Under the pieces are notes generated by a model. It made no database searches, was not told the origin of the DNA, and saw only the letters and a list, made by a program, of their open reading frames with translations. Source: Actinomycetes bacterium (GTDB lineage: Bacteria > Actinomycetota > Acidimicrobiia > Spongiisociales > SHLN01). From it: DNA of 61,032 bases. The stretch is from contig JAHEJY010000002.1 of NCBI GenBank assembly GCA_024638625.1, forward strand, positions 1-61,032, written 5' to 3'. Shown in pieces: positions 18,321 through 38,396 of this stretch; the first letter of the stretch is position 1, and each line of letters starts with the position of its first letter. A program made the translations under genes and the position numbers.

Positions 18321-19003
18321 TGGAGTTCACGCTGCTCGGCAGCGTCCTCGTGGCCGCCGGCAGCCTATACGCGGGTCTCTGGCTGATGGGCCGGCGCGAC
18401 CCGGCGATATGTGTTCGCGATCTCTGGGATCTGGCGTTGGCGGGAGCGATCGCAGGACTGGTCGCTGGAAGGTTGGTTGCCATGGTCAAAGGCGGAGTCA
18501 ACCCGTTGACCCATCCAACAGATTTCATTCTCCTCCGGGCGGGGGTCGACACGGTCGGCGCCACGATTGGGGCATTGGCTGCGGTGACGTTCCTCCAACG
18601 CCACCGGTTGCCTGGTCTCCTCGACCAGCTGGCAGCGGCCGCTCTGGTTGGAATGGGAGGCTGGCACGCCGGGTGCCTCGTCCGGGGCACATGCCTCGGA
18701 ACACCGTCCGATCTGCCCTGGACCTGGGCGGTGGAGGGCAGCTCGATATCACGGCATCCTGTTGAAATCTACGCCGCACTTGCGTTTTGGTCAGCGGCCT
18801 ATTTCGTATTCAGGTGGCGCAACAAGCCGTGGCTCGCCGCAAGTCTCGGTTTAGCGGTGGCCGGCCTCATTCGTCTTGTTGTCTTTCCCCTCCAGGTTTC
18901 TCTCCATTCGGGTGTTGTATGGTGGTATCTATCAGCGGCGGCGGTGGGACTGATGGTGGCTTCCTATACTGCCCGACCTCTGTCGGAGTGGCGGAATTGG
19001 TAG
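18320..19003 (+). CDS. Prolipoprotein diacylglyceryl transferase (Lgt)-family membrane protein
   Basis: 227 aa, polytopic. GGWHAGCLVRGTCLGTPSDLPWTW...SRHPVEIYAAL resembles the Lgt core (G.C.G.P...W...RHP.QLYE). TGATG coupling to the TlpA-like gene. The 3' end overlaps tRNA-Leu. Confidence 0.55.
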   Translation: MEFTLLGSVLVAAGSLYAGLWLMGRRDPAICVRDLWDLALAGAIAGLVAGRLVAMVKGGVNPLTHPTDFILLRAGVDTVGATIGALAAVTFLQRHRLPGLLDQLAAAALVGMGGWHAGCLVRGTCLGTPSDLPWTWAVEGSSISRHPVEIYAALAFWSAAYFVFRWRNKPWLAASLGLAVAGLIRLVVFPLQVSLHSGVVWWYLSAAAVGLMVASYTARPLSEWRNW

Positions 19004-19069
19004 ACGCGCTAGGTTGAGGGCCTAGTGGGCGATAAGCCCGTGGAGGTTCAAGTCCTCTCTCCGACACCA
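18982..19069 (+). tRNA. tRNA-Leu (anticodon GAG), class II with long variable arm, encoded CCA
   Basis: Acceptor stem GTCGGAG/CTCCGAC. Anticodon stem CTAGG/CCTAG with loop TTGAGGG. Variable arm TGGGCGATAAGCCCG. T-loop GGTTCAAGTCC. Terminal ACCA. Confidence 0.9.
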
Positions 19070-29716: not shown

Positions 29717-30463
29717 CTAGCCCTTCGCCTGATCGGCAACGGCTGCTGCTGCGGCCCTGGCGGCCTCTTCGTCGCCCAGGTACCTGGAAGCGATCGGTTG
29801 CAGCGATGAGTCGAGCTCATACACAAGCGGAATGCCCGTTGGAATGTTGAGGCCGACGATCTCCTCCTCGGATATGCCATCGAGGTGTTTGACCAAAGCC
29901 CGCAAGCTGTTGCCATGAGCCACGACGAAGGGGACCTTGCCATCTGCCAGCACGGGAACAATGGAATCGTGCCAATACGGCAGCATCCGGTCGACCACAT
30001 CGGCCAGACATTCGGCGGCCGGAAGGACATCGGGTGCGAGGTTGGCGTACCGGGCATCGTGACGCGGGTGACGCTGGTCCTCTTTCTCGAGGGCCGGTGG
30101 TTGCACGTCGTAGGACCTTCGCCAGATCAGCACCTGCTCCTCACCATATTCGTCGGCAGTCTCCTTCTTGTTGAGCCCCTGCAGACCGCCGTAATGCCGT
30201 TCGTTGAGCCGCCACGAACGCGACACGGGCAACCACGACATGCTCATTGCGTCAAGTGCGAGATTGGCGGTCCTCGTAGCCCTCGTGAGCACGGACGTGA
30301 AGACGACGTCGGGAACGATATGTTCGGCCACGAGCAGATTTCCGGCCGATTTCGCTTCGGCCTCGCCCTGTTCGGTCAAGTCGACATCCGTCCAACCCGT
30401 GAAGAGGTTTTCGAGATTCCAGACGCTTTGGCCGTGGCGGAGAAGTACCAGTGTGCTGCTCAT
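29717..30463 (-). CDS. gpmA: 2,3-bisphosphoglycerate-dependent phosphoglycerate mutase
   Basis: 248 aa. [29 protein letters not shown]...[12 protein letters not shown].... ATGA overlap with tpiA. Confidence 0.92.
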
Positions 30464-31236
30464 ACCCAGTACCGCACGATGGATGCGAAACTGTCCGGAT
30501 CCAACGATGCTCCGCCCACCAGAGCTCCGTCGATGGTCCTCTTGGCCATGAAATCGGCGATGTTGCCTGCATTCACCGACCCACCGTACAGCACCCGGAC
30601 GACGTCGCCGGCGTCACCCAATGCCGCCCGGATCACATCAATGACCCCGGCAGCATCGTCGGTCGACGGTGTCCTTCCGGTACCGATCGCCCAGATGGGC
30701 TCGTAGGCGAATACCAGTTTCGAGAGATCCTCTATCCCTTTGATCGCCCCGGCCACCTGCCCGGTCACCCACTCATTCGTATCCCCACTCTCGCGGATCT
30801 CCAGGGTCTCGCCGACGCACACAACGGGTGTCATTCCTGCTGCGAGTACCGCTTTTGCCTTCTGGTTGACGAGCGCATCATCTTCGCCGAAATGCTCACG
30901 GCGTTCGCTGTGTCCCACGATCACAAACCGGACGGACAGCTTCGCCAACATCGGAGCCGAGATCTCCCCCGTGAACGCTCCACTTTCGGCGAAGTGGGTG
31001 TCTTGGGCCCCCAGATGAATGGGCAACCGGTCGGCCTCGATCACGGTTTGTCCAGAGCGCAGCGCCGTGAACGGTGGGGCGACTCCTACGTCCACCCGTT
31101 CATAGTCGGCGAGATCCAACCGGTACGAGAGCTTCTGGATCACCTGGATCGCCTCGAGGTGGGTGTGATGCATCTTCCAGTTGCCGATGATGAGATCCTT
31201 GCGACCCTCATCCAGTTTTTCTTGGCTTTCAGTCAT
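30460..31236 (-). CDS. tpiA: Triosephosphate isomerase
   Basis: [15 protein letters not shown]...VIVGHSERR...[10 protein letters not shown].... The chosen start is the ATG at 31234-31236, preceded by GGAGG. An alternative ATG is at 31248. The longer ORF to 31500 overlaps pgk. Confidence 0.9.
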
Positions 31237-32440
31237 CCTCGCCTCCATTGCTTCGGATTTCACTGGCGGAACGTTCGAGCATGGTAAGGCCGGGAAGTCT
31301 TTTTCCTTCGAGCAGCTCGAGGCCCGCGCCTCCCCCGGTCGACACAAACGAAACCTCGTCCTCGAGCCCGAGAAGCCGCAATGCCGCCACCGAGTCTCCT
31401 CCTCCGACGACCGTAAAAGCATCTGCGTCTGCCACCGCTTTGGCCACGGCCGCGGTCCCAGCGCGGAACGGTTCCCACTCGAAAACCCCCATTGGACCAT
31501 TCCAGAACACGCTGCCGGCTTCGTTCACGATCGCGGCGTAGCGGGCGGCGGTCACCGGTCCGATGTCGAGACCCATGGCCCCATCCGGGATGTCACCGGC
31601 GCCAACAACCTCCGGTTCCGCATCCTCGGCAAATTCGGTCGCGACGACGATGTCTTCCGGTAGCACGATCTTGGCGCCATCAGCCGACGCCAACAGCTCA
31701 CGCATTTGGGGAACCATGTCAACCTCCACCAGCGAGCTGCCTACCTTGATTCCCGCTGCCATCATCAAGGTGAAACACATACCACCACCAATCAACATGG
31801 CATCGACCTTCGGCAAGAGGGACGTGAGCACTCCGATCTTGTCTGAAACCTTGGCGCCACCGAGCACGACGACGAACGGGCGTGGGGCACCAGCGACGAG
31901 CTTTCCGATTGCCTCGAGTTCTTTCTGGAGGAGTGGCCCGGCGAAGGATGGAAGATGTTCGCCGACGCCAACGGTGGAGGCGTGTGCGCGGTGGGCTGTT
32001 CCAAACGCGTCCAGAACGAAGGCATCTGCCAATCTCCCGAGCTTGGCGGCCAGATCGGGGTCGTTGGATGTTTCCCCGGTTTCAAACCGGGTGTTCTCGA
32101 GCACCAGGATCGTGGCAGGATCCATCTCTTTGATGGCATCTTTTGCCGCGCGACCGACCAACGACGCGACGAATGTCACCGGGACGGTTGCCAACCCGGC
32201 CATCCGATCGGCAACGGGTTGCAAGGAGAGCTTCTTCGACTTCTTCTTCGGGCGGCCGAGGTGGCTCATGACGACGACCCTCGCACCCCGGGCGGCCAGG
32301 GTTTCGAGCGTCGGAAGGGCCGCACGAATCCTGAAGTCATCGGTGATCTCACCGTCCTGAAGCGGGACGTTGAGGTCGGAGCGAACCAGCACGGTCTTAT
32401 GGTCGGGCGTGAGGTCATCGGTTGTGAGGAATCGAAGCAT
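31229..32440 (-). CDS. pgk: Phosphoglycerate kinase
   Basis: VLVRSDLNVPL...VVMSHLGRPK...FWNGPMGVFE...STGGGA. The likely start is MLRFLTTDDL at 32440. The ORF extends to 32467. Confidence 0.92.
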   Translation of the reverse strand: MLRFLTTDDLTPDHKTVLVRSDLNVPLQDGEITDDFRIRAALPTLETLAARGARVVVMSHLGRPKKKSKKLSLQPVADRMAGLATVPVTFVASLVGRAAKDAIKEMDPATILVLENTRFETGETSNDPDLAAKLGRLADAFVLDAFGTAHRAHASTVGVGEHLPSFAGPLLQKELEAIGKLVAGAPRPFVVVLGGAKVSDKIGVLTSLLPKVDAMLIGGGMCFTLMMAAGIKVGSSLVEVDMVPQMRELLASADGAKIVLPEDIVVATEFAEDAEPEVVGAGDIPDGAMGLDIGPVTAARYAAIVNEAGSVFWNGPMGVFEWEPFRAGTAAVAKAVADADAFTVVGGGDSVAALRLLGLEDEVSFVSTGGGAGLELLEGKRLPGLTMLERSASEIRSNGGEDD

Positions 32441-32527
32441 CGCCCAGAAACGATAATGCTGGAACATGCTCGTCTATCCGAACGGGTAGCGTTAACGTTT
32501 CCGAGGGATCATCATGAAAGGAACCGC

Positions 32528-33541
32528 ATGCGCGTAGGCATTATGGGATGCGGCCGGATCGGACGAAACGTATTCCGATTGCTGGCCGATCATCCAAGTC
32601 TGGAGGTGAGCGCCGTCGTCGATACGGCCGACCCGAAAGGTCTTGCGTACCTTCTCAAATACGATTCGATCTATGGCAGGTTCCCCGGCGAGTTGAACGC
32701 GATCGACAACGGCGTCGTTCTCAATGGCCGTGAGATTCCCTTCACACAGGATCGTGAGCCGGGGGATGTCGATTGGGAAGGCCTCGGGGTCGAGCTTGTC
32801 GTCCAGGCGCTTCCGAAATATCACACCGGCGACTGGATGGAAGCGCACCTCAAAGGAGGAGCGAAGCGGGTCGTCATGGCCTCGACGCCCGAAACTCTCG
32901 GCGATGTGCCGCTACTCCTCTGGGGGGTGAACGATGACATTCTGAAATCCGACACGCGAGTGGTCGCACTTGGATCGAACACTTCCAACGCCCTGGCCCC
33001 GATCTTGTCGATTCTCGACAACCGCTTCGGGATCGCGCAGGCCACGTTTACGAGCGTCCACGCCTTTACCAACAAACAGCGCCTGGCCGACGTGCCGACG
33101 TCTGGGTTTCGCACGTCACGGGCAGCTGCGGAAAACATCATTCCGTCAGAGACAACCTCACCTGCGATACTCGAGTGGGTGCTTCCGGAACTTGCGGGCA
33201 AGATACGCGGAATGGCCTTGAACGTTCCCGTGTCAGACGGATCTACCATCGATCTGGTTGCGGTCCTCGAAGCTCCCACCTCGGTGGAGGGCATCAATGA
33301 AGTCATGAAGGAAGACATCACCAACCGCTATTCGAACATCATCGAATACATCGAGGATCCGATCGTGTCGAGCGATGTGACCGGCACCACCCATTCTGGG
33401 CAGTTCGACAGCCTCGCGACCCTGGTCCTCGGCGACACGATGGTCAAGCTCATCGTCTGGTTCGACAACGGCTGGGGTTACGCCAACCGGATTGTCGAGA
33501 CGCTCGAAGTATTCGAACGATTTGAGGAAGGAAGCGCATGA
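32528..33541 (+). CDS. GAPDH-family paralog lacking the catalytic cysteine (Cys to Asn)
   Basis: 337 aa. MRVGIMGCGRIGRNVF (NAD fold). It aligns along its full length with the downstream gap product, but the active-site block SNASCTTNCLAP reads ALGSNTSNALAP (Asn codon at 32978-32980). His in TSVHAFTNKQ is retained. ATGA overlap with gap. Confidence 0.8.
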   Translation: MRVGIMGCGRIGRNVFRLLADHPSLEVSAVVDTADPKGLAYLLKYDSIYGRFPGELNAIDNGVVLNGREIPFTQDREPGDVDWEGLGVELVVQALPKYHTGDWMEAHLKGGAKRVVMASTPETLGDVPLLLWGVNDDILKSDTRVVALGSNTSNALAPILSILDNRFGIAQATFTSVHAFTNKQRLADVPTSGFRTSRAAAENIIPSETTSPAILEWVLPELAGKIRGMALNVPVSDGSTIDLVAVLEAPTSVEGINEVMKEDITNRYSNIIEYIEDPIVSSDVTGTTHSGQFDSLATLVLGDTMVKLIVWFDNGWGYANRIVETLEVFERFEEGSA

Positions 33542-34554
33542 CAAAGATCGCCATCAACGGCTTTGGCCGCATCGGAAGAGCTGTGTTCCGGATCATCGCC
33601 GAAAGACCGGATTCAGGCCTGTCGGTCGTAGCCATCAACGATCTCTCTGATGACGACGTTCTGGCCTACTTGCTCAAACGTGACTCGGTCATGGGAACCT
33701 TCGAGCACGACGTGACGGTCGGCAACGACCGGATGCAGGCGGCCGGGCATGATATCGCCATGCTGCGCGAGCCTGATCCTGCTGACCTGCCCTGGGAGGA
33801 ATTGGGTGTTGATATCGTCATCGAAGCCACGGGGGTCTTCCGAAGTCGTGACCAGCTCATGAAACACATCGAAGCCGGAGCGAAGCGGGTGTTGTTGACC
33901 GTGCCCGCCAAGGATGAGATTGACGCCACCATTGTCCTGGGGGTCAATGACGCCGATCTCGAGCCATCTGATCAGATCGTATCCAACGCCTCATGCACGA
34001 CCAACTGTCTCGCCCCTCTCGCCAAGGTCCTCGATGACGAATTTGGAGTTGTCCGGGGAGTGATGACAACAGTCCACGCCTACACGAATGATCAACGCCT
34101 GGCAGACGTACCCCATGCCGACCTTCGACGATCACGGGCTGCAACCGAAAACATCATTCCCACGACCACCGGGGCTGCCAAAGCTGTCGGCAAGGTGTTG
34201 CCGTCTCTGGACGGCAAACTCGATGGCATCGCGATGAGGGTCCCGGTTCCGGATGGCTCCATCGTCGACCTCGTGGTGGAGCTCGACGAGTCGGTTACCG
34301 AGGACCAGGTGAAGGCTGCAATGAAGAAGGCGAGCCAAGAAGGCCTCTCGGGGATTCTCGAATACTCGGAGGAACCACTCGTCTCAACCGATATCATCGG
34401 CAACCCGCACTCGAGCATCTTCGACGCTGCCGCCACTCAGGTCATGGACGGCAACCTGGTCAAGATCGTCTCGTGGTACGACAACGAGTGGGGGTATTCC
34501 AACCGCGTGGTCGATCTCCTGGAGCGAATGGCTGCGCAGTTGGTCGCGGCCTAG
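33538..34554 (+). CDS. gap: Glyceraldehyde-3-phosphate dehydrogenase (type I)
   Basis: 338 aa. KIAINGFGRIGR, SNASCTTNCLAP, TTVHAYTNDQ, WYDNEWGYS. Confidence 0.93.
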   Translation: MTKIAINGFGRIGRAVFRIIAERPDSGLSVVAINDLSDDDVLAYLLKRDSVMGTFEHDVTVGNDRMQAAGHDIAMLREPDPADLPWEELGVDIVIEATGVFRSRDQLMKHIEAGAKRVLLTVPAKDEIDATIVLGVNDADLEPSDQIVSNASCTTNCLAPLAKVLDDEFGVVRGVMTTVHAYTNDQRLADVPHADLRRSRAATENIIPTTTGAAKAVGKVLPSLDGKLDGIAMRVPVPDGSIVDLVVELDESVTEDQVKAAMKKASQEGLSGILEYSEEPLVSTDIIGNPHSSIFDAAATQVMDGNLVKIVSWYDNEWGYSNRVVDLLERMAAQLVAA

Positions 34555-35510
34555 CGTCCATTCCACAGCTCGGACAACGCCTGGCCCAAGAGCATCGGAT
34601 CATGCTGGGGCCAGGCAAAGCCTTCATCTTTCAACTCGGCTTCGACGTAGGGCACGGGCATATTCGCGACCGGCGTCACCACCTGAAACGGGGGCGGAAC
34701 CTCAATGGGTCGCTTGTTGACGAGCGTCACGAAATCGGGTTTGAGGCCGGTGAACGACATCAACGCTTCCACATGATCCGACAGTGTCATCGAAAGCGTC
34801 TCACCATCCTGGGTGATGAGGTTGGCCACATAGACGAGTTGGGCGTCGCTGCGATTGAGGGCTTCCGCCAGGCCCGGAACCACGAGTGCCGCAATGAGTG
34901 ATGTGAAGAGGCTTCCGGGCCCGATGACAATCTGATCCGCCTCCGCAACCGCATCGAGCACAGGAGGATTCACCTCGACACCCTCCGGTTTGACGGCGAT
35001 GGACTCGAAGATGCCGCGAGTGCGGCTGATGAGAGCCTGGCCCGCAACCAACTGCCCATCAACCTCAGCTTCGAGTATGAGTGCTTGCAACGAAACGGGA
35101 AGAACCGTGCCAAGCGCACCCAACGCCTCTCCTGCGATCTGCAGGCCCGTGTGGAAGTCACCAAAGATATCTGCCATGGCGGCGAGGATCAGATTGCCAA
35201 GGCTATGTCCGCCGACGTCCGAACTTCCGAATCGGTAGTCAAAAAGCTCACCAAGAAGTGTTGGCTCCGAACTGAGGGCGAGCAGGCAACGGCGTAAATC
35301 GCCCGGCGGAAGGATGTCCAACCCCTCTAACAGCCGCCCCGAACTCCCCCCGTCGTCCGCCACGGTGACAACGGCCGAGATCCTCGACGCGTAGCACTGT
35401 ATCCCGACCAGAGCTTGCGACAATCCATGGCCTCCGCCGATCGCCACCACGCTGGGACCGTCGGGGCTCAACGTCATCAATTCTTCGAGTTCGGTCAGGA
35501 GCTCGTTCAT
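34551..35510 (-). CDS. yvcK: YvcK/CuvA-family gluconeogenesis factor (LPPG:FO transferase-like, UPF0052)
   Basis: 319 aa. VVAIGGGHGLSQAL...VVTVADDGGSSGRL...GPGSLFTS. Confidence 0.9.
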   Translation of the reverse strand: MNELLTELEELMTLSPDGPSVVAIGGGHGLSQALVGIQCYASRISAVVTVADDGGSSGRLLEGLDILPPGDLRRCLLALSSEPTLLGELFDYRFGSSDVGGHSLGNLILAAMADIFGDFHTGLQIAGEALGALGTVLPVSLQALILEAEVDGQLVAGQALISRTRGIFESIAVKPEGVEVNPPVLDAVAEADQIVIGPGSLFTSLIAALVVPGLAEALNRSDAQLVYVANLITQDGETLSMTLSDHVEALMSFTGLKPDFVTLVNKRPIEVPPPFQVVTPVANMPVPYVEAELKDEGFAWPQHDPMLLGQALSELWNGR

Positions 35511-36400
35511 ATGTCGCGATGCTGAACGATCACGTCTGCCTCCTCCCCCAGCGTTTCGGCGAGGAACTCGGAGATGGCGACCGATCGATGCCTACCGCCG
35601 GTACATCCGATACCGATTGAGACGTACGACTTTCCTTCGGCCCGGTATCGGGGCAGCAAGAAGTTGATGAGCCCCACGGTACGGTCCAGGAATTCTTTGG
35701 CGTCATCGGACGACAATACGAACTCGGAGACAGCCTGATCCCGGCCCGTCAGTGGACGCAGTTCGGGTACCCAATGGGGATTCGCCAGGAACCTGACGTC
35801 CAAGACGATATCGGCATCGCGAGGGGCTCCGTGTTTGAAGCCGAAGGATGTGATGGAGACATTGAGACCGCTTCCCTCATGTTCGTCGGCGAATACGCTC
35901 GAAAGCCTCCTGCGAAGCTCATGCACATTGAGGTTCGACGTGTCGATCAACACGTCGGCGGCTCCGCGCAGTTCCGCAAGAGCCTCCCGTTCGAGCGCGA
36001 TTGATTCGGCGAGGGTTCCACCGGATACAGGGTGCGGCCTTCTGGTCTCGTTGAACCGTCGCACCAGGACGTCGTTGTCGGCGTCGAGGAACACCACCCC
36101 GGAGCGAACTCCGTATTTGTTGAGACGGGCCATCTGATCTCGCAGTTCGCCGAACGCATGAACCCCGGTCCGGCTGTCGACCGCCATAGCGATCTTCGAT
36201 CGCGAGATCTCAGCAAGCTGATTCGCGTCCAGAACCCGGGATATGAGTCGGGGCGGAAGATTGTCGATAACGAAGAACCCGAGGTCCTCCAAGACGTTGC
36301 AGGCTGTTGAGCGCCCCGCCCCGGCCATGCCTGTCACGATTACGACGAACGGTGAATCATCGACCGGTACGAACTCCATGGTCGTGTCCGCATCCGACAT
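35507..36400 (-). CDS. rapZ: RNase adapter/nucleotide-binding protein RapZ (YvcJ)
   Basis: 297 aa. P-loop GMAGAGRST and a C-terminal block IGCTGGRHRSV. Confidence 0.9.
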   Translation of the reverse strand: MSDADTTMEFVPVDDSPFVVIVTGMAGAGRSTACNVLEDLGFFVIDNLPPRLISRVLDANQLAEISRSKIAMAVDSRTGVHAFGELRDQMARLNKYGVRSGVVFLDADNDVLVRRFNETRRPHPVSGGTLAESIALEREALAELRGAADVLIDTSNLNVHELRRRLSSVFADEHEGSGLNVSITSFGFKHGAPRDADIVLDVRFLANPHWVPELRPLTGRDQAVSEFVLSSDDAKEFLDRTVGLINFLLPRYRAEGKSYVSIGIGCTGGRHRSVAISEFLAETLGEEADVIVQHRDI

Positions 36401-36551
36401 CTCTGCATGGCTGGATCCTTCTTCGTCGGTAGCGGTGATGATTGCTCCCTCTTCTGCACCTGCTCAAGCACCAGCAGCTGGTTCTGCACCTGGTAGTGCA
36501 CCTCGTCGTGCAGCTCGGGCACAGGCGGGTCTGACCAGCCGGCTGGGCTCC

Positions 36552-38396
36552 CTAATGGAGTGCAGCGTACAAGTTTATGGCCACGTTCTGGGGGACCACC
36601 TCCGCCAACTCTTCCAGGGGCGCCTCCCTCATCTTCTTGACCGACTTGAACTTCTTCACGAGAGCCTGTTTGCGGCTGGGCCCGACGCCGGGCACGTCAT
36701 CGAGGATCGAATCCACCATGCTCTTGCCCCGGATCTTTCGGTGATACGTGATAGCGAATCGATGGGCCTCATCGCGGATCCGTTGCAAGAGATAGAGCGC
36801 GTCTTCACCGCGGGGGATGCGCACAGGTTCTGCGCGACCAGGCAGATACACCTCCTCCATTCTCTTCGCCAGACCGGCGATCGGGATATCGATCCCCAAC
36901 TCCCCCAAAGCCTTCACTGCACTCGAAACCTGACCCTGTCCACCATCCACGAGCACCAGAGACGGCGGGTAGGCGAAACGGCCTCGTTCTTCGATCGGCA
37001 GCTTCAGCTCCTCTAGATATCGGTTGAAGCGGCGACGCAGCACCTCTTCCATCGAGGCGAAGTCGTCCTGACCGTCGACCGACTGAATACGAAAATGGCG
37101 GTAGTCACTCTTACGAGGAAGTCCGTCCTCGAGAACGACCATCGATGCAACGGTGTTGGTGCCCTGGACAGTCGAAATGTCGTAGCATTCGATCCGGAGC
37201 GGCGCTTCCGGCAGATCGAGGTGCTCCTGGAGACTGCGAAGAGCCCTGGCGCGGGCATTGTGGTCGGATTGCCGCCGCAACCGGTGGCGGGCGAACTCCT
37301 CGCGGGCATTTGCCTGGGCCGTTTCCATCAGGCGCGCTTTTGCGCCGCGGGCGGGTACCCGAATAGTCACGGTAGAGGATCGACGACCGCTCAGCCATCT
37401 TTCCCACACCCGGTTATCGGGGGGCAACTCCTCTACGAGGACAACGGGAGGCGGCGGATCAGATCCATAGAGCTGGGCGATCATCCTCGAGATCAGCTCG
37501 GGGGTCGTCACGTCCTCAACCTTGTCGATGATCGTCACGATTCTGCCGACCACCCGACCGCGTCGAACATGCAGAACGGCGAGCGCTGCCTCCAAATCAT
37601 CATCGTGAAGAGCGATGAGGTCGAAATCTTCCTTCTGGTTCGAAACCATTTCCTGGACGCCCGCTGCTCTTTCCAATGCCGACAGCTGGTCTCTGAATCG
37701 GGCAGCCTGCTCATACTGGAGATCGTCTGCTGCCTCCTCCATTCCCGCTCGAAGCTCCTCGATTACGTCTGATTGGTCTCCCTGCAGGAATTCTGCGAGG
37801 CCATCGACATAGGACGCGTACGCCTCGGCCGTAACCTCCCCGACACAGGGTCCGCTGCACCGCTCAATGTGGAAGAGGAGGCACGGCCTGCCGGCTTGCT
37901 CATGGCGGCGGAACTTCGCATTGGAACAGGTTCGAACCGGAAACGTCCTCACGAGCAGATCCAGCGTCTGACGGATCGCATATGCCCTGGCATAAGGGCC
38001 GAAGTACTGCGTGCCCTTGCGCTTCTTACCGCGCATCACGAGAGCGCGGGGCCACTCCTCGGATCGGGTAATCGCCAGATACGGAAAACTCTTGTCGTCC
38101 TTGAGTCGAATATTGAAGCGGGGCAGTTCCTGCTGGATGAGGTTGTACTCCAGCATGATTGCTTCTTCCTCAGAACTGGCCACGATCCACTCCACGGACG
38201 CCGAGGCGTCGATCATCGCCCTTGTGCGCGGCGCGAGGCCAGTCCGGAAGTAGGAGGAGAGTCGCTTACGAACCGACTTGGCCTTCCCCACATACATGAC
38301 GGCACCGTGCCGATCTCGAAAGACATAGACGCCTGGAATATCCGGGATCTCCGACGGGGACGGCCAATCATCCACAATGACCGTCTTTCGAATCAT
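36552..38396 (-). CDS. uvrC: Excinuclease ABC subunit C
   Basis: 614 aa. GIY-YIG N-terminus (GVYVFRD...VMYVGKAKSVRKRLSSY), UVR domain, and C-terminal HhH. Confidence 0.95.
   Translation of the reverse strand: MIRKTVIVDDWPSPSEIPDIPGVYVFRDRHGAVMYVGKAKSVRKRLSSYFRTGLAPRTRAMIDASASVEWIVASSEEEAIMLEYNLIQQELPRFNIRLKDDKSFPYLAITRSEEWPRALVMRGKKRKGTQYFGPYARAYAIRQTLDLLVRTFPVRTCSNAKFRRHEQAGRPCLLFHIERCSGPCVGEVTAEAYASYVDGLAEFLQGDQSDVIEELRAGMEEAADDLQYEQAARFRDQLSALERAAGVQEMVSNQKEDFDLIALHDDDLEAALAVLHVRRGRVVGRIVTIIDKVEDVTTPELISRMIAQLYGSDPPPPVVLVEELPPDNRVWERWLSGRRSSTVTIRVPARGAKARLMETAQANAREEFARHRLRRQSDHNARARALRSLQEHLDLPEAPLRIECYDISTVQGTNTVASMVVLEDGLPRKSDYRHFRIQSVDGQDDFASMEEVLRRRFNRYLEELKLPIEERGRFAYPPSLVLVDGGQGQVSSAVKALGELGIDIPIAGLAKRMEEVYLPGRAEPVRIPRGEDALYLLQRIRDEAHRFAITYHRKIRGKSMVDSILDDVPGVGPSRKQALVKKFKSVKKMREAPLEELAEVVPQNVAINLYAALH

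Follow-up and report, generated by a model that had tools for sequence, protein, structure and literature searches.

A GAPDH paralog lacking the catalytic cysteine overlaps gap in Acidimicrobiia and belongs to a wider gap-coupled clade

Why would a bacterium translate, together with its canonical glyceraldehyde-3-phosphate dehydrogenase (GAPDH), another protein of the same fold from which the catalytic cysteine is missing? GAPDH is among the most studied enzymes, and its bacterial form is regarded as a homotetramer in which all subunits are identical and active, with catalysis carried out by Cys149 and His176. The locus that raises this question lies in a 61,032-nt stretch of DNA from an Actinomycetes bacterium of the class Acidimicrobiia (assembly GCA_024638625.1, contig JAHEJY010000002.1, positions 1 to 61,032; hereafter the window, meaning the whole stretch analyzed), where an open reading frame (ORF) at 32528–33541 runs into the start of gap. 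We call this gene gapX and its product GapX, names that are our own. A preliminary description made from the letters had proposed that the product is a pseudoenzyme subunit or regulator of GAPDH, or a GAPDH fold repurposed for binding. Our analysis leads us to put at roughly 55% the probability that GapX has no catalytic role and joins Gap in a common assembly, as a subunit that probably binds NAD(H). The two genes are:

32528–33541, plus strand: gapX, encoding a 337-aa GAPDH-fold paralog without Cys149, Arg195 and Arg231 (ATG at 32528, TGA at 33539–33541).
33538–34554, plus strand: gap, encoding a canonical type I GAPDH of 338 aa, with all conserved catalytic and binding residues present.

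GapX is recognizably a member of the GAPDH family. In BLASTP it aligns end to end with the downstream Gap, as had been described (137/328 identities, 42%; E = 4e-92), carries both Pfam domains (Gp_dh_N, 2e-27; Gp_dh_C, 6e-44) and ends in ...EVFERFEEGSA without an extension, at the same length as Gap. An AlphaFold2 (AF2) monomer model of high quality (predicted local distance difference test, pLDDT, 86; predicted template modeling score, pTM, 0.87) has the GAPDH fold, with a template modeling (TM) score of about 0.86 to both 1hdg and 1gd1 in Foldseek. Low confidence is confined to the S-loop (residues 182–203), which is suggestive at most but would fit a loop that needs neighboring subunits. 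No structure has been solved within the GapX family, the top sequence match among solved structures being the Thermotoga GAPDH 1hdg. Against the curated model TIGR01534 (cut-off, 367.2 bits), Gap passes with 457.8 bits and GapX fails with 296.1, and GapX is likewise below the cut-off of every NCBIfam model for GAPDH, Epd and ArsJ-associated GAPDH. The mechanically called ORF extends upstream to 31955; the start at 32528 is backed by a 337-aa homolog (P0001, 91% identical) and by 80 orthologs.

What has been lost, and what has been kept, is clearest in the active site, where the canonical block SNASCTTNCLAP becomes ALGSNTSNALAP in GapX, with the second cysteine (Cys153) replaced by Ala, and the TGAAKAV block becomes TTSPAIL. 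These replacements, and the persistence of the SVHAFTN block with His176, had been noted earlier and are borne out by the codons and the alignment. Three codons mark the key positions:

32978–32980, plus strand: AAC, giving Asn at the position of Cys149; Asn in 80/80 orthologs.
33059–33061, plus strand: CAC, giving the retained His176; His in 78/80 orthologs.
33221–33223, plus strand: AAC, giving Asn at the position of Ps-site Arg231; Asn in 80/80 GapX and a clade-wide change.

Residues were compared across 80 GapX, 76 partner Gaps, 73 cluster representatives of other canonical GAPDHs and 115 Cys-retaining members of the wider clade (below). GAPDH has two anion sites, one formed by Arg231 and Thr179 and the other by Arg195, Ser148, Thr150, Thr208 and Gly209. 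Both arginines are present in 100% of partner Gaps. At position 231, Arg is found in 100% of canonical GAPDHs versus Asn in 97% of the Cys-retaining clade members, while Pi-site Arg195 is Thr in the GapX of the window and variable (T, Q or S) among its orthologs. The fixed changes comprise Cys149 to Asn, Cys153 to Ala, Thr151 to Ser, Gly209 to Asn, Ala210 to Ser, Arg231 to Asn, Glu314 to Gly (seen also in the window) and Asn6 to Met; Arg195, Asp181 and His190 are relaxed. The preliminary description had not listed the changes at Arg231, Arg195 and Glu314. Near the cofactor site, the clade-wide changes are Asn6 to Met, Asn31 to Ala or Ser, and Glu314 to Gly. Retained are GxGRIGR, Asp32, Ser148, Thr150, Asn152, His176, Thr179, Arg197, Thr208, Asn313, Tyr317 and the S-loop, with the NAD-site motifs among them (GxGRIGR, Asp32, Asn313 and Tyr317) invariant among orthologs. 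Five residues of the former active-site pocket (S148, N149, T150, N152 and N231) are invariant in all 80 orthologs and four more are nearly so (S151, 79/80; H176, 78/80; S210, 75/80; N209, 73/80).

With the nucleophile and both phosphate-site arginines gone, GapX cannot perform the GAPDH reaction, and we consider this chemistry excluded on the strength of the residues. The same residues indicate that the positive charge that would hold phosphorylated ligands is gone, and that the former active site has been replaced by an invariant Asn/Ser/Thr polar pocket beside a probably intact NAD site. It is also very unlikely that GapX supplies extra capacity through a weak GAPDH activity, or a non-phosphorylating oxidation of glyceraldehyde-3-phosphate, that dispenses with cysteine. 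Such an activity could draw on the fold, the NAD-site motifs, His176, Ser148, Thr150, Thr179 and Thr208, all of which are kept, but it would lack the nucleophile and the two arginines by which inorganic phosphate and the phosphate of the substrate are bound, and Cys149 mutants to Ala or Ser are essentially inactive by established enzymology.

These features are not peculiar to one genome. In a search of 5.8 billion proteins, the best 120 matches were 57–91% identical to GapX, compared with 42% for its own gap product, and all 120 read Asn at the nucleophile position (149), in a GSNT(S/A)N block, a constancy well beyond chance. Scanning one genome per GTDB species revealed GapX relatives in 482 species-level genomes; orthologs were extracted from the best 80 of these, which are almost all Acidimicrobiia metagenome-assembled genomes (MAGs), and all members found come from metagenome-assembled or uncultured genomes. 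Between the same genome pairs, dN/dS was 0.03–0.10 for gapX and 0.03–0.15 for gap, so that gapX is under purifying selection as strong as that on gap, and GapX has evolved about 1.5× faster than Gap. In every genome, GapX is about 44% identical to its own Gap (range, 40–50%), which points to an old duplication and to no recent duplication or gene conversion. Pairwise distances of the two proteins correlate (r = 0.80), and the two have been co-inherited.

The loss of key catalytic residues could also mark a decaying gap duplicate, a pseudogene in progress, and the preliminary description had named frameshifts or stops in close relatives as the sign of it. No decay was found: the ORF is intact in 80/80 orthologs and 68 columns are invariant across 59 members. 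Together with the low dN/dS, the presence in 482 species-level genomes and a divergence from gap that is the same everywhere and indicates an ancient split, this effectively refutes decay.

Selection on gapX is accompanied by a strict association with gap, the junction between the two genes in the window consisting of:

33538–33541, plus strand: ATGA, the overlap of the gap start with the gapX stop; also present, at −4, in 68/76 Acidimicrobiia pairs.
33524–33534, plus strand: GAGGAAGGAAG, a Shine–Dalgarno (SD)-like element for gap, within the last codons of gapX.

A canonical, Cys-containing gap lies directly downstream on the same strand in 77/80 genomes, and the contigs of the remaining three end first. 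Pairs without the ATGA overlap (8/76) are spaced at −1 or +1, and a GGAGG-like element occupies the equivalent position in the majority of the 76 orthologous pairs. Among additional loci, drawn from 80 metagenome loci and from others retrieved, gap was the next gene in 71/71 cases in which 400 nt or more of downstream sequence was available (42 with Cys at residue 149, 21 without and 8 with no call), mostly at a spacing of −1 (TGATG) or −4 (ATGA). The genes around the pair differ by lineage: in one subset, to which the window belongs, pgk-tpi-gpmA lies upstream on the opposite strand and yvcK-rapZ-uvrC lies downstream, and the vicinity of most other Acidimicrobiia pairs contains nadD/rsfS, an M23 peptidase, moxR/VWA or trkAH. 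Across lineages we found no conserved third gene that would hint at a pathway (pgk/tpi/gpmA, nadD/rsfS, M23 peptidase, moxR/VWA, trkAH and leu genes all vary), and the gapX–gap pair itself is therefore the conserved unit. The pairing is universal, ancient and stop/start-coupled, and the overlap first noted in one genome has proved to be conserved across the class and beyond.

Several database entries had the appearance of GapX–Gap fusions and were rejected. P0271 (677 aa) and P0272 (673 aa) have garbled, Arg-rich, out-of-frame middles typical of frameshift read-throughs; P0273 (locus L097), from an error-prone assembly in which adjacent genes are fragmented, is also a read-through; and P0110 and P0120 carry miscalled N-terminal extensions.

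To what extent does the pairing depend on the Asn substitution? A profile search of 1.8 billion cluster representatives placed, directly below the Asn family, divergent GAPDH-like proteins with S, V, A, G or P at position 149, one of which keeps Cys yet lacks Arg231 and Arg195. Of eight such representatives looked up, six (P0123, P0124, P0127, P0131, P0133 and P0141) have a canonical gap immediately downstream, usually with overlapping stop and start, in unrelated contexts of very different GC content; for P0129 the available part of the next gene is an 82-residue start that resembles canonical Gap, and for P0139 the contig ends 59 nt past the gene. Searching with a second profile, made from these sequences, brought up a large set in which Cys149, His176 and Arg195 are retained but R231N, G209N/W and E314G are shared; its members belong to Terriglobia (Acidobacteriota) and Candidatus Eisenbacteria. 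These Cys-retaining proteins are also encoded in front of gap, and score 353–383 bits against TIGR01534, on either side of the cut-off of 367. The clade is thus marked by R231N, E314G (near-universal) and G209N, together with the coupling to gap, whereas residue 149 is C, N, S, V, A, G, P or I according to lineage.

In a survey by locus (L082-L084, L085/L086, L089-L091, L093, L094-L096 and L098-L177), Cys occupied position 149 in Terriglobia, Eisenbacteria and numerous metagenome contigs, the others having N, S, V, A, G, P or I. The calls for metagenome loci were made with a regular expression and a few may be misassigned; a few loci read Y in one pass and S in another.

Neighbor-joining (NJ) trees on distances derived from p-distances, with the key columns excluded from the clade tree, placed these proteins in one clade apart from all canonical GAPDHs, their own partners included (bootstrap, 96/100); the partner Gaps also group together. 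Within the clade, Cys-less lineages are scattered at several places among Cys-retaining ones, which, with canonical GAPDH as the outgroup, implies that the nucleophile was lost repeatedly while the gene, its pairing and its coupling persisted. This argues that the nucleophile is dispensable for the conserved role of the clade, which would need no thiol catalysis. The Asn family is one branch, the Acidimicrobiia state, of an older clade spanning several phyla. The preliminary description had envisaged a conserved clade of Cys-less paralogs always adjacent to gap; conservation and adjacency hold wherever the contig allows, but the Cys-to-Asn change does not define the clade, many members of which keep Cys149.

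Two kinds of search match fall outside this clade. Four sporadic Cys-less GAPDHs (P0178, P0184, P0227 and P0260) group with canonical GAPDHs and are unrelated one-off losses or sequence errors. Two giant multi-domain proteins, P0121 (2089 aa) and P0134 (1455 aa), topped the search of cluster representatives only through the summed scores of their GAPDH domains, and keep Arg231 and Glu314. Both come from low-GC organisms and have a hydrophobic N-terminus that by eye is signal-peptide-like; they contain alternating pairs of two different Cys-containing GAPDH-like domains, one of the GxGRIGR type and one of the GAGRISL type, so that two divergent GAPDH domains are joined in a single polypeptide; a middle stretch of P0121 resembles, also by eye, a PGK domain.

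If the coupled genes encode subunits of one complex, a trace of this might be expected where subunits meet. In GAPDH tetramers, the S-loops of neighboring subunits pack at the core and contact the neighbor's NAD. In the window, both proteins have the same S-loop core:

33080–33100 (GapX) and 34096–34116 (Gap), plus strand: RLADVP, the motif common to both proteins.

RLADVP is found in 80/80 GapX, in 114/115 Cys-retaining clade members and in 69/76 partner Gaps, the other seven of which have QLADVP or HLADVP, compared with only 1/73 other canonical GAPDH cluster representatives, in which the segment is highly variable. Metagenome pairs share the motif in the same pattern. Two canonical gap genes without an upstream gapX (L163 and L174) have the S-loops QVILDLPH and QRILDFPH, and a gap behind a frameshifted gapX has RLADVP. 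An invariant, pair-specific S-loop in paralogs that are 44% identical is what would be expected if both sat in one tetramer; it is suggestive of such a link between GapX and Gap, but not decisive.

The shared S-loop also bears on whether GapX might act apart from Gap, as a non-enzymatic GAPDH-fold binder: a sensor of NAD(H) or a metabolite, a nucleic-acid-binding or moonlighting protein, or a scaffold for glycolytic enzymes. The loss of catalytic residues under strong selection would suit a binder, and GAPDHs are known for moonlighting interactions. We nevertheless judge this quite improbable, as it leaves unexplained both the invariant tetramer-core segment shared specifically with the partner Gap and the constant presence beside gap.

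An unlikely but more substantial proposal is that GapX has been neofunctionalized into a free-standing NAD-dependent enzyme, probably a homotetramer, acting on a non-phosphorylated substrate with His176 and the Asn/Ser/Thr pocket and without covalent thiol catalysis; its co-expression with gap would then reflect a metabolic role tied to the triose-phosphate node. The pocket argues for it, since invariance at S148, N149, T150, N152 and N231, and near-invariance at S151, N209 and S210, would not usually be expected of a dead site. GapX also retains the NAD-site motifs and His176, a neutral ligand would agree with the loss of two arginines, and the many clade members with Cys149, His176 and Arg195 could be active with altered specificity. 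However, the diversity seen at position 149 (C, N, S, V, A, G, P and I) is hard to square with one chemistry, gap is the only conserved neighbor and no other pathway gene accompanies the pair, and a stop/start overlap maintained across phyla is more typical, from general knowledge of operons, of the subunits of one complex.

We therefore favor co-assembly of GapX with Gap. Translational coupling would set a fixed proportion of the two proteins, which would form a mixed GAPDH-like tetramer, X2G2 being the simplest case. The GapX subunits would bind NAD(H), possibly holding an uncharged ligand in the remodeled, Asn-rich former active site, and would govern the two catalytic Gap subunits in their stability, cooperativity or regulation. 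NAD(H) binding, hetero-oligomerization and any regulatory effect are the parts of this reading that we infer, the physical association of the two proteins, or regulation of Gap, being suggested by genetic and sequence arguments. Several observations weigh against it. The partner Gap has lost nothing: a defect of the kind seen in the active partners of catalytically dead paralogs was sought and not found, Gap having kept all positions with at least 80% conservation among canonical GAPDHs, and it has no obvious need of a partner. A real enzyme with another substrate would likewise account for the invariant pocket and for the Cys149, His176 and Arg195 of many clade members. The shared S-loop could descend from the common ancestor and be kept separately in two homotetramers, and no genuine GapX–Gap fusion protein was found among the database candidates, three of which are the read-throughs described above.

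A broader proposal, to which we would give slightly less than even odds, is that GAPDH in Acidimicrobiia, many Acidobacteriota, Candidatus Eisenbacteria and other lineages is an obligate heterotetramer of Gap and GapX. GapX would bind NAD(H), coupling would fix the ratio, and the former active site of GapX would serve as a regulatory ligand pocket. GAPDH classically shows half-of-the-sites behavior, and in such a heterotetramer this behavior would be hard-wired. GapX would be non-catalytic in Acidimicrobiia and other Cys-less lineages, and elsewhere may retain a crippled active site.

How far does the pair resemble systems already described? With type I phosphorylating GAPDH (GapA; TIGR01534, EC 1.2.1.12), GapX shares the Pfam domains, predicted fold and length, as well as GxGRIGR, Asp32, His176, Thr179, Asn313, Tyr317 and the S-loop. 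Unlike it, GapX has Cys149 and Arg231 replaced by Asn, Arg195 lost, Gly209 changed to Asn and Glu314 to Gly, and belongs to a separate clade. GapX thus falls outside type I GAPDH by its nucleophile, both arginines and the curated score (296 bits versus a cut-off of 367), while its domains, fold and His176 are those of the family, in keeping with the earlier view that it is not an ordinary GAPDH. Epd and ArsJ-associated GAPDH are specialized paralogs with non-glycolytic functions, but both use the catalytic Cys that GapX lacks; GapX scores 223 against a cut-off of 530 for Epd (TIGR01532) and 247 against 450 for the ArsJ type (NF033735), and no pdx or arsJ neighbors were present at the loci examined.

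The architecture proposed for GapX and Gap has a general precedent in the chloroplast GapA/GapB A2B2 enzyme, in which two GAPDH paralogs share a tetramer and one is regulatory. There, however, both subunits are active, and GapB is regulated through a C-terminal CP12-like, Cys-containing extension; GapX has neither the catalytic Cys nor an extension, and GapX–Gap is not a pair of the chloroplast type. That the fold and cofactor binding are independent of Cys149 is indicated by the Cys149 Ala and Ser mutants of Bacillus stearothermophilus GAPDH (PDB 1npt and 1nq5), tetramers without the nucleophile whose entry titles read 'complexed with NAD+'. Those are laboratory point mutants that keep Arg195 and Arg231, whereas GapX represents a natural, ancient lineage with a wholly remodeled anion site.

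A parallel in principle is provided by the prozymes of trypanosomatids, dead paralogs that activate AdoMetDC and deoxyhypusine synthase by forming heteromers with them (PMC6221367, PMC3663545). Like these, GapX is a catalytically dead paralog under selection alongside an active enzyme: catalytic residues are lost under purifying selection, and the gene co-occurs, and is stop/start-coupled, with that of the active paralog. In prozyme systems, the active paralog is impaired and needs its partner, whereas Gap keeps every conserved residue; and prozyme genes are eukaryotic and not operon-coupled, whereas gapX is bacterial and coupled to gap.

Upstream of the pair, the window contains:

32468–32527, no strand assigned: the intergenic region between the divergent genes pgk (minus strand) and gapX (plus strand), a presumed promoter region.

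An SD-like GAAAGGAA at 32516–32523 precedes gapX. A consensus scan of 32468–32527 found no sigma-70-like promoter, and promoter/terminator, Rfam and tRNA scans returned nothing relevant to the pair. More widely, the usual actinobacterial uvrC-rapZ-yvcK-(whiA)-gap-pgk-tpi cluster is rearranged in the window (29717–38396). No whiA lies between yvcK and gap; the gapX–gap pair fills the gap slot on the opposite strand, convergent with yvcK and divergent from pgk; gpmA follows tpi; and the yvcK stop codon (34551–34553) overlaps that of gap (34552–34554). This layout recurs at loci L001-L003, L006, L008, L014, L015, L023, L024, L026 and L058, whereas in most Acidimicrobiia the pair is located elsewhere. 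Otherwise the window contains ordinary chromosomal housekeeping genes (polA, uvrA, uvrB, uvrC, an opp-type ABC transporter, glutamate dehydrogenase and an FG-GAP repeat protein), with a tRNA-Leu(GAG) at 18982–19069 as the sole Rfam/ARAGORN match in the 61 kb.

The preliminary description had not recognized GapX as a described bacterial family, and we concur: searches of curated families, of solved structures and of the full-text literature gave no description of a bacterial GAPDH paralog that is Cys-less or coupled to gap, and a 2025 review of aldehyde dehydrogenase superfamilies that includes GAPDH paralogs makes no mention of such a protein. As far as could be found, a dead-paralog partner is previously unreported for GAPDH. 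Database names for GapX relatives are inconsistent ("aldehyde dehydrogenase", "type I GAPDH" and "NAD-binding domain-containing protein"), as annotation pipelines would produce for a clade whose Cys-retaining members lie on both sides of the TIGR01534 cut-off.

A second GAPDH-fold protein, catalytically crippled or dead, is thus inherited and translated with gap in several phyla, in at least 482 species-level genomes. If GapX is a subunit or regulator of Gap, it would represent a new quaternary and regulatory architecture at a step central to glycolysis, in bacteria that are abundant in soils and in the sea, and a bacterial, operon-encoded case of the dead-paralog ("prozyme") principle. If it is instead a new enzyme, it would point to Cys-independent chemistry on the GAPDH scaffold. 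Under either reading, metabolic reconstructions that count GapX as a second GAPDH are wrong.

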